The notes under the pieces were generated by a model that was not told the origin of the DNA, made no database searches, and saw only the letters and a list, made by a program, of their open reading frames with translations. From UHGV virus genome UHGV-1738141: DNA of 21,416 nt. One strand, 5' to 3'. This DNA comes from a virus. Position 1 is the stretch's first letter. The number at the start of each line of letters is the position of its first letter. Made by a program: the position numbers and the translations under genes. Shown in pieces: positions 77 to 552 of the stretch.

Positions 77-198
77 GTACCTGTAAACTTGGTGCAGTAC
101 AGTAAACACGCTGGTGGTCGTGAATACTGACTTTTTATCTTGCTGGCTTTTTAGACAAGAGTTATTGGTATGTCATGTTAACCAGAAGGGGAAAAGAC

Positions 199-402
199 AT
201 GCTAAAACAGCAAGATATGACAGAAACCGCCGCCGCAGTCCTTCATTTCTTACCTGCTGACAAGTGGGTAACGCCACGCATGATGACGAGAACTACCGGA
301 GTAAGCGAAGCCCGGTGCCAGTTAATACTGACCCAGTTAGTTCTGGCGGGTCTGGCGAAGGGTAACGGCGGGTACGGGAATAAATTCAGACGCTGCCAGT
401 AA
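199..402 (+). CDS. Small (67 aa) putative winged-helix DNA-binding protein, PapI/FaeA-like
   Basis: ATG at 199 preceded by agaagggg (185-192); track ORF 175-402 trimmed to this start. Segment TTGVSEARCQLILTQLVLAGLAKG resembles the recognition helix and wing of small PapI/FaeA-type regulators. Family assignment is by pattern recall only. Confidence 0.45.
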   Translation: MLKQQDMTETAAAVLHFLPADKWVTPRMMTRTTGVSEARCQLILTQLVLAGLAKGNGGYGNKFRRCQ

Positions 403-552
403 TGGCGGTTTCCTGCTGTGAAAATGGGCGGCTGGTGGGTGTTGGTAGCACCTGCCAGCCATTCGCTCATGCTTACTGGTCACAAGCGAACCACGGCCCA
501 CTGCTTTAGCGCAAAAGCAGAGTGAGCCTACCAGAGTTACGCTTACTGATCC

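Follow-up and report, generated by a model that had tools for sequence, protein, structure and literature searches.

What controls an orphan methyltransferase gene that sits between the antiterminator and the lysis genes of a lambdoid phage? The question is raised by the virus genome UHGV-1738141, a stretch of 21,416 nucleotides (nt) that is referred to as the window throughout; all coordinates are window coordinates, and all features listed lie on the plus strand. A first-pass annotation had drawn attention to a 67–amino acid (aa) open reading frame (ORF) directly upstream of the methyltransferase gene and to an imperfect hairpin between the two and had suggested that they could regulate the methyltransferase or late-gene expression. 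The enzyme resembles M.EcoGII, which is described as a non-specific adenine DNA/RNA methyltransferase from an Escherichia coli O104:H4 prophage, deleterious when constitutively expressed and silent in its native lysogen; the only explanation recorded for the silence is that prophage genes are off in lysogens (PMC5778455). An upstream small ORF or leader is mentioned neither in the searched passages of that paper nor in those of the SUPREM paper. As described below, positions 139 to 552 of the window are best explained as the regulatory front end of a methyltransferase cassette.

A terminator-flanked cassette between Q and the lysis genes

The window represents the late region of a lambdoid phage. 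From position ~50 onward, it is 98 to 99% identical to phages mEp460, Ayreon, cdtI, and Stx2c (megablast matches begin at 50 to 53). The gene order in these phages is antiterminator Q, terminator, hypothetical gene, terminator, 67-aa hypothetical gene, “DNA methylase,” terminator, holin, lysin, and Rz. In the window, the left edge of the cassette is marked by an intrinsic terminator at 58 to 76 (a stem at 58 to 70 and a T-run), which was called by a terminator scan and is annotated as a terminator in Ayreon. A mosaic junction lies at this terminator: the homology to mEp460, Ayreon, and cdtI starts only at ~50, and positions 1 to 49 are the end of a frame-1 ORF that runs off the left edge and derives from a different module.

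The cassette is closed by a second intrinsic terminator (1613 to 1639), located just 5′ of the holin gene and likewise identified by the terminator scan and the Ayreon annotation. On the 3′ side of the cassette terminator, a holin-like membrane ORF (1586 to 2017), a lambda R-type lysozyme ORF (2021 to 2497), and an Rz-like spanin ORF (2494 to 2961) were found, which confirms the late-operon position of the cassette. Together, the small ORF, the leader, and the methyltransferase gene form a self-contained prophage cassette that is flanked by terminators and lies between Q and the lysis genes. Given the flanking terminators and the conserved element upstream of the small ORF (see below), the layout looks like that of a “moron,” i.e., an independently transcribed gene inserted in a phage genome.

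The methyltransferase gene and its start region

The gene at 553 to 1605 encodes an orphan β-class N6-adenine methyltransferase of 350 aa (Pfam N6_N4_Mtase, 1e-42) with the DPPY motif in the N-terminal part and FMGSG in the C-terminal part. When METHYLTRANSFERASE of 553 to 1605 was compared with M.EcoGII using BLASTP (M.EcoGII sequence from PMC11551740, Supplementary Table S1), 81% identity over 349 aa was observed. M.EcoGII/M.EcoGI of the E. coli O104:H4 prophage share with the window enzyme its length, the DPPY...FxGxG order, and a central target-recognition domain that contains a helix-turn-helix (HTH). Judging from these similarities, the enzyme is probably a non-specific adenine methyltransferase of the M.EcoGII type.

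The start region of the gene (547 to 555, UGAUCC-AUG) was delineated from its sequence and conservation. There is no GGAGG-type Shine-Dalgarno sequence; the AUG is directly preceded by a conserved UGAUC(C/U), which is complementary, at a suitable spacing, to what we take from the known 16S 3′ end to be positions 1529 to 1534 of 16S ribosomal RNA. Both versions, UGAUCC and UGAUCU, also place a GATC (Dam) site next to the start codon. In predicted folds, the AUG is unpaired. The first ~50 nt of the gene (562 to 600) can form two hairpins of their own, ACUGU...ACAGU and GUUGAU..AUCAAC; nucleotide conservation of this stretch is high among close relatives, but both hairpins are lost in Kosakonia.

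The small ORF encodes a winged-helix protein

The small ORF extends from the ATG at 199 to the TAA at 400 to 402, exactly as first annotated, and is preceded by an AAGG-type Shine-Dalgarno sequence at 186 to 191; it is supported by the ORF call, a profile match, and a structure model. The N terminus encoded from ATG 199, MLKQQDMTETA, is invariant across the family, whereas an in-frame ATG at 175 is unconserved in other loci and was rejected as the start. Purifying selection is evident from dN/dS values of 0.05 to 0.44 in 13 of 14 pairs (the 14th pair is too saturated for an estimate), and all indels in the ORF are multiples of 3. The protein matches phrog_331 at 2e-25, a prophage-only family with no assigned function; its homologs, hundreds in number and 63 to 67 aa long, are found in Enterobacterales prophages. 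A profile search against 5.8 billion proteins returned only this same prophage family, automatically named “TrmB,” “DprA-like WH,” “MarR,” or “IclR” (the pipeline label of the window protein is “TrmB/DprA-like WH”), and PDB sequence searches and NCBIfam provided no family for it. Overall, the 67-aa ORF is a genuine winged-helix protein gene that is under selection.

The first-pass annotation had described the recognition helix as PapI/FaeA-like. The winged helix itself was borne out: The structure model is a confident one, and its neighbors are mostly DNA-binding transcription factors (TrmBL2, IclR, MarR, and ArsR), with RNA-binding winged helices (SelB) also among the matches. Membership in the PapI/FaeA family did not hold, as no match to FaeA (PF04703) was found at E ≤ 1, PefI (2jt1) appeared only at Foldseek rank 46 with a TM score of 0.62, and the locus has no Lrp or pap-type context. 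Helix 3 (RCQLILTQL) is nearly invariant, as is the N terminus, the helix-3 motif being RCQL(I/L)LTQ...AGL, and residues 12 to 36 are hypervariable. One Cys, C40, is nearly invariant (at least 90% of sequences), an extra C-terminal Cys is found in some subtypes, and there is no dimerization domain. Of the Zα contact residues (Asn173, Tyr177, and Trp195), the equivalent of Tyr177 is an invariant Thr45.

The location of the small gene had also suggested a controller (C) protein of a restriction-modification system. C proteins are Xre-type all-α HTH dimers whose targets are C-boxes and whose main effect is to delay the endonuclease. As in the systems controlled by C.PvuII, C.AhdI, and C.Esp1396I, a small co-oriented regulator-type gene lies 5′ of a modification gene here, and timing control of a dangerous enzyme is a plausible shared purpose. 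However, the protein studied here is a winged helix with no Xre/HTH_3 fold, encoded in a phage late-operon cassette. The methyltransferase is an orphan: In two annotated phages and eleven loci with gene tables, no endonuclease gene was found, and the methyltransferase is flanked by Q-region genes on the 5′ side and by a terminator followed by holin/lysin genes on the 3′ side. A C-box of the GACTnnnAGTC subtype was absent, at up to one mismatch, from positions 1 to 600 of the window. The C-protein identity was rejected on the fold, the gene content, and the absence of this C-box.

Comparison of the window with locus L003 revealed that the leader and the methyltransferase are 98 to 100% identical, whereas the small ORF (4001 to 4195 in L003) is only 62% identical (dS of 1.3). 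Because of this discrepancy, the hypervariable middle of the small ORF appears to recombine as a separate allele, which suggests that it is swapped independently of the leader and the methyltransferase. In the same comparison, the first ~30 nt of the ORF and the helix-3 codons are invariant even at synonymous sites; the 5′ end of the ORF is possibly under nucleotide-level constraint.

A conserved RNA structure precedes the methyltransferase gene

A structured leader of the methyltransferase mRNA was delineated at 415 to 552 using RNAalifold and a covariance model. Its helices are P1 (425–429/496–500), P2 (430–441/449–460), P3 (462–467/485–490 and 470–471/481–482), P4 (501–507/514–520), and P5 (521–527/541–547, with the loop motif CCAGAG at 531 to 536). 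The pairs of all five helices were verified, and the stem core and loop of P4 are conserved in sequence. P5 ends 5 nt upstream of the methyltransferase ATG. The imperfect hairpin that had been placed at ~499 to 524 turned out to be P4, one helix of a conserved structured leader of ~160 nt, and was rejected as a stand-alone operator or terminator. Its core (C501-U507 paired with A514-G520; CUGCUUU-AGCGCA-AAAGCAG) was confirmed; the loop, AGCGCA, is 6 nt long instead of 5 nt, and the outer “ca...tg” pairs fail because 499 and 500 belong to P1 and 522 to 524 belong to P5. Four of the six modeled P4 pairs are invariant, and two show some compensatory change.

In the window sequence, stems of at least 7 base pairs (bp) were counted at 11 positions within 175 to 552 compared to 1.8 in shuffled sequences, with 0 of 500 shuffles reaching 11, and a folding z score of −2.9 was obtained for nucleotides 400 to 565. 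A single 7-bp stem on its own is unremarkable, and the decisive evidence for the structure comes from cross-species conservation and covariation. In a first alignment of cassettes from E. coli, Salmonella, Kosakonia, and one metagenome, the 150-nt spacer between the two genes was better conserved than the small gene and had a constant length of 149 to 150 nt. RNAalifold applied to a MAFFT alignment of 52 sequences under-predicted the structure, with loops misaligned; this was remedied by a hand-made seed and a covariance model. The model, R1, whose seed comprised 16 sequences and a structure specified by hand, matched 53 of 53 long-type loci (E values of 1e-15 to 1e-41), always abutting the methyltransferase ATG.

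In the resulting alignment, which is fitted to the model and should be read with this caveat, 94.3% of paired cells were complementary compared to 32 to 42% when the partners were slid by 1 to 3 columns, compensatory changes on both sides were observed in 15 of 38 pairs, and the observed values were reached by 0 of 500 shuffles. Compensations in Proteus and Morganella can be read directly from the raw sequences; P2, the main hairpin, has both arms fully rewritten in Proteus, e.g., GACUGUAAAAGUG...CACCUUUACAGUC. The frequent G-U pairs are compatible with the sense strand alone, so that the structure is restricted to sense-strand RNA. The leader is recognizable in Enterobacteriaceae, Erwiniaceae, Morganella, and Proteus and is 85 to 93% identical where the nucleotide identity of the methyltransferase is 74 to 76% and its dS is 1.6 to 2.2 (saturated). 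The loop and junction sequences UGUGRAAAUGGGCGG, UCAC, AGCGCA, and CCAGAG are conserved.

A 35-aa ORF inside the leader (402 to 509), whose ATG overlaps the stop codon of the small ORF (TAATG), recurs in several loci; its frame is unconserved between loci, and it was rejected as coding. A search of Rfam 15 with 1 to 2200 and 120 to 580 gave nothing near the gathering score (the best E values, 0.4 to 9, were to unrelated families), ARAGORN detected no tRNA or tmRNA in the region, and a literature search with the exact RNA and peptide strings retrieved no papers. The RNA leader has apparently not been described before.

The P0 hairpin holds the stop codon of the small ORF in its loop

Immediately 5′ of the leader, a terminator- or attenuator-like hairpin, P0 (GCUGCCA-GUAA-UGGCGGU, 392 to 409, pairs verified), is followed by a U-rich tract, the whole feature spanning 392 to 413. 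The stop codon of the small ORF (400 to 402) is located inside the P0 loop. Loci from E. coli to Photorhabdus and Xenorhabdus share this arrangement with differing stem sequences, and where RLQ replaces RCQ in the final codons, the non-coding 3′ arm of P0 is altered to match. P0 is retained in loci without the small ORF and has the form of a canonical terminator in L025, L028, L032, and L039; in L028 and L032, a strong terminator takes the place of P0 directly 5′ of UGUGGAAAUGGGCGG. The U-tract of the window is weak (UUUCCU), and the terminator scan made no call there. P0 is absent in Proteus and Morganella. An alternative pairing between the 3′ arms of P0 and P2 was discarded, as it is confined to the RCQ allele.

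The short leaders of Xenorhabdus and Photorhabdus (L061 to L093, ~80 to 100 nt upstream of the methyltransferase) lack P1, P3, and P4; P0, P2, the GUGAAAUG motif, and the CCAGAG region are kept, and P0 and P2 covary. From this conservation pattern, the short variant may be the minimal functional core.

In attenuators of the pyrBI/pyrE type, a ribosome at an upstream stop codon covers the hairpin. There, as in the case of P0, an upstream ORF ends in or at a terminator-like hairpin with a U-rich tract, and by analogy we infer that a ribosome terminating at 400 to 402 would cover P0 and keep it from folding, giving it an attenuator-type function. The differences are that the upstream ORF studied here specifies a conserved folded protein in place of a leader peptide, that the terminator strength varies by locus, and that a Q-modified polymerase would ignore the terminator.

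A conserved DNA element upstream of the small ORF

A conserved unstructured DNA element is located at 139 to 175 and comprises CTTGCTG (139 to 145), CAAGAGTTAT (156 to 165), and TGGTATGTCA (166 to 175); written across loci, the block is CTTGCTG-N13-AGAGTTAYNTGTRT. The element hardly varies across loci as distant as those of E. coli, Xenorhabdus, and Proteus, and a terminator-like hairpin with a T-run lies 20 to 60 nt upstream of it in almost all loci that contain the small ORF. The element is spaced like a promoter (TTGCTG, 17 bp, and TAYNTG), with a non-consensus −10. A sigma-70 scan did not call the element, and inspection by eye for sigma-70 consensus, sigma-54, sigma-E, CII, LexA, CRP, and IHF motifs led to no assignment. 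Neither RNA structure (zero consensus pairs) nor a conserved dyad-symmetric operator was found in it. From its conservation and geometry, the element could be the cassette's own promoter or operator.

Several sequence features of the element were considered separately. A long-range pairing of CUUGCUG (139 to 145) with CAGCAAG (209 to 215) was rejected, as Xenorhabdus and Proteus change the ORF side with no compensation. An alternating TGTRTGT tract adjoins a gene whose product most resembles Zα domains, which may be a coincidence. The sequence C(C/A)AGAGTTA(C/T) has only two copies in the 21.4-kb window, one in the P5 loop (531 to 540) and the other in the upstream element (156 to 165). Because ~1.3 chance matches are expected (estimated from the motif degeneracy on both strands of 21.4 kb), the sharing is not significant alone, and the motif is a candidate shared binding site.

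The leader is tied to the methyltransferase more tightly than the small ORF

To describe how the parts of the cassette are inherited, loci anchored on the methyltransferase were collected (~80 to 81 loci from different species, with 93 to 61% protein identity). Sixty-four of 81 contain the small ORF, 14 contain the leader and the methyltransferase without the small ORF, and 3 contain neither. Thus counted, 14 of 67 leader-bearing loci lack the small ORF. The loci without the small ORF also lack the 139 to 175 element; this combination is seen in L028 and L032 (Kosakonia and Enterobacter) and in L018, L020, L022, L027, L029, L033, L038, L050, L060, L067, and L087.

When viral contigs were scanned with the RNA as the anchor, the methyltransferase lay at a fixed offset 3′ of the leader in 111 of 111 cases with enough flanking sequence, and the small ORF was found 5′ of 105 of 106 leaders. 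With the small ORF as the anchor, the methyltransferase was present in all 78 loci with enough sequence. The spacing between the small ORF and the methyltransferase is constant across Enterobacteriaceae (149 to 150 nt). The leader is found exclusively 5′ of this methyltransferase and is tied to it more tightly than the small ORF is, because 14 loci keep the leader and the methyltransferase without the small ORF. Of 5426 complete E. coli genomes, 1065 (~20%) carry the leader without any annotation of it, and many of the E. coli copies are at least 99% identical.

Discussion

The closest functional analog of the cassette would be the com-mom pair of phage Mu, an analog and not a homolog. In Mu, Com binds a hairpin next to the stem that inhibits translation of the toxic mom gene; in Mu-like prophages, genes resembling com are located 5′ of non-specific adenine methyltransferase genes (PMC6483171 and PMC3299994). 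In com-mom and in the FluMu, Pnm1, and B3 pairs, as in the locus studied here, a small ORF lies immediately 5′ of a host-toxic, late anti-restriction modification gene. RNA hairpins are located directly 5′ of the enzyme start in both Mu and our cassette, a resemblance that is functional only, and in FluMu, Pnm1, and B3, the enzyme itself is a non-specific adenine methyltransferase, like the M.EcoGII type. In contrast, Com is a CCCC zinc finger, whereas the protein described here has a winged-helix fold, lacks a zinc finger, and shows no homology to Com that could be detected, and the β-class methyltransferase of the M.EcoGII type is unrelated to Hin1523 or Mom. The com and mom genes are also closer together than the small ORF and the methyltransferase, which are separated by a 150-nt, five-helix leader.

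A regulatory role of the small protein for the toxic methyltransferase is plausible, because its gene is a genuine winged-helix gene coupled to the methyltransferase at a fixed spacing. On balance, we consider it probable, if not by much, that the leader provides cis control of the toxic enzyme, with P0 as an insulator or attenuator, P1 to P5 tuning initiation, and the winged-helix protein as the regulator. According to this model, which draws on the analogies above, P0 would stop transcripts unless the polymerase is Q-modified or tightly coupled to translation. P1 to P5 would set translation initiation, P5 being inside the ribosome-binding window. The winged-helix protein would act either on the leader RNA, as a non-homologous analog of Mu Com, the activator of mom translation, or on the promoter-like DNA element. 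The net outcome would be a methyltransferase that is silent in the lysogen and produced in a burst late in lytic growth, by which progeny DNA would be methylated against restriction. Counting for the model are the reality and fold of the small gene, the likeness of the enzyme to M.EcoGII, the site between Q and the lysis genes, the selection on the leader and its covarying structure, its exclusive link to the methyltransferase, the stop codon in the P0 loop across genera, the Mu precedent, and the SelB matches. Points against it are the weak U-tract of P0 in the window, the lack of P0 in Proteus and Morganella, and the loss of P1, P3, and P4 from the Xenorhabdus and Photorhabdus leaders. In addition, the AUG is unpaired in predicted folds, which give no sign of plain occlusion of the start codon. 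The leader can also persist without the small ORF in cis, since 14 of 67 leader-bearing loci lack it, and no protein-binding site is identifiable in the cassette, CCAGAG(TTAY) being too short for significance. A bolder proposal is that P0 to P5 represent a new class of cis-regulatory RNA for promiscuous adenine methyltransferases from prophages of enterobacteria and that the 67-aa protein is either an RNA-binding translational activator, i.e., a convergent, fold-unrelated counterpart of Com, or a reader of DNA methylation in a feedback loop; we put this forward tentatively and regard it as rather unlikely.

The main rival to gating by the leader, which keeps the first-pass idea without its family assignment, places the control at the level of DNA: The small protein would be a C-protein-like autoregulator that binds the 139 to 175 element and sets transcription of the small ORF and the methyltransferase, with the leader as a separate control layer or a stabilizer. 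Most structural neighbors of the protein being DNA-binding transcription factors, its recognition helix being invariant, and the upstream element being invariant in sequence without RNA structure, as a DNA signal would be, and always inherited with the small ORF are all in line with such a role. Yet, the element contains no conserved dyad-symmetric operator, its non-consensus −10 makes it a putative promoter only, the protein has no dimerization domain, and membership among C proteins fails on the fold, the endonuclease gene, and the C-box. We therefore consider autoregulation through DNA doubtful, although it deserves more attention than the readings that follow.

A different possibility is that the leader is a riboswitch (e.g., for SAM/SAH), a sensor of a host factor, or a processed small RNA and that the small ORF is an unrelated passenger, such as a reader of methylated DNA, an anti-defense protein, or a host-takeover protein. 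The highly conserved loop and junction sequences, as in riboswitches and protein-binding RNAs, the persistence of the leader in 14 loci without the small ORF, and the swapping of the ORF middle between alleles independently of the leader and the methyltransferase would agree with this, and winged-helix domains are reported to be able to sense 6mA (PMC11037411). However, the leader bears no likeness to known riboswitch or small-RNA families, no clear expression platform with alternative pairing was found, the fixed distance to the methyltransferase AUG favors a role in cis, and the small ORF is physically joined to the RNA through its stop codon inside P0, which makes a ligand-sensing or trans-acting RNA distinctly improbable. 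That the hairpin arose by chance and is conserved merely through the recent horizontal spread of one phage module, as the many nearly identical E. coli copies might be taken to indicate, we consider extremely unlikely: Across genera, the leader remains 85 to 93% identical while the dS of the methyltransferase is 1.6 to 2.2, 15 pairs show compensatory changes, and both arms of P2 are rewritten in Proteus.

A small regulator combined with a structured leader that controls a toxic phage DNA-modification enzyme is already known in kind. What is apparently new is a conserved, covarying RNA leader with a stop-in-hairpin junction in front of a methyltransferase of the M.EcoGII family. M.EcoGII is widely used as a reagent in chromatin and RNA footprinting and in engineered m6A writers. 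The locus described here is a concrete control module that is unannotated in about one-fifth of complete E. coli genomes and is also carried by Stx2c phages. If the leader and the protein do gate translation, the cassette would be a second, independently evolved case of com-mom-type timing of a self-toxic anti-restriction enzyme, its leader would be a new RNA family to annotate, and the module would offer a compact off-switch that could aid the cloning and expression of toxic methyltransferases. The finding is also relevant to the evasion of restriction and of methylation-sensing defenses by lambdoid phages.
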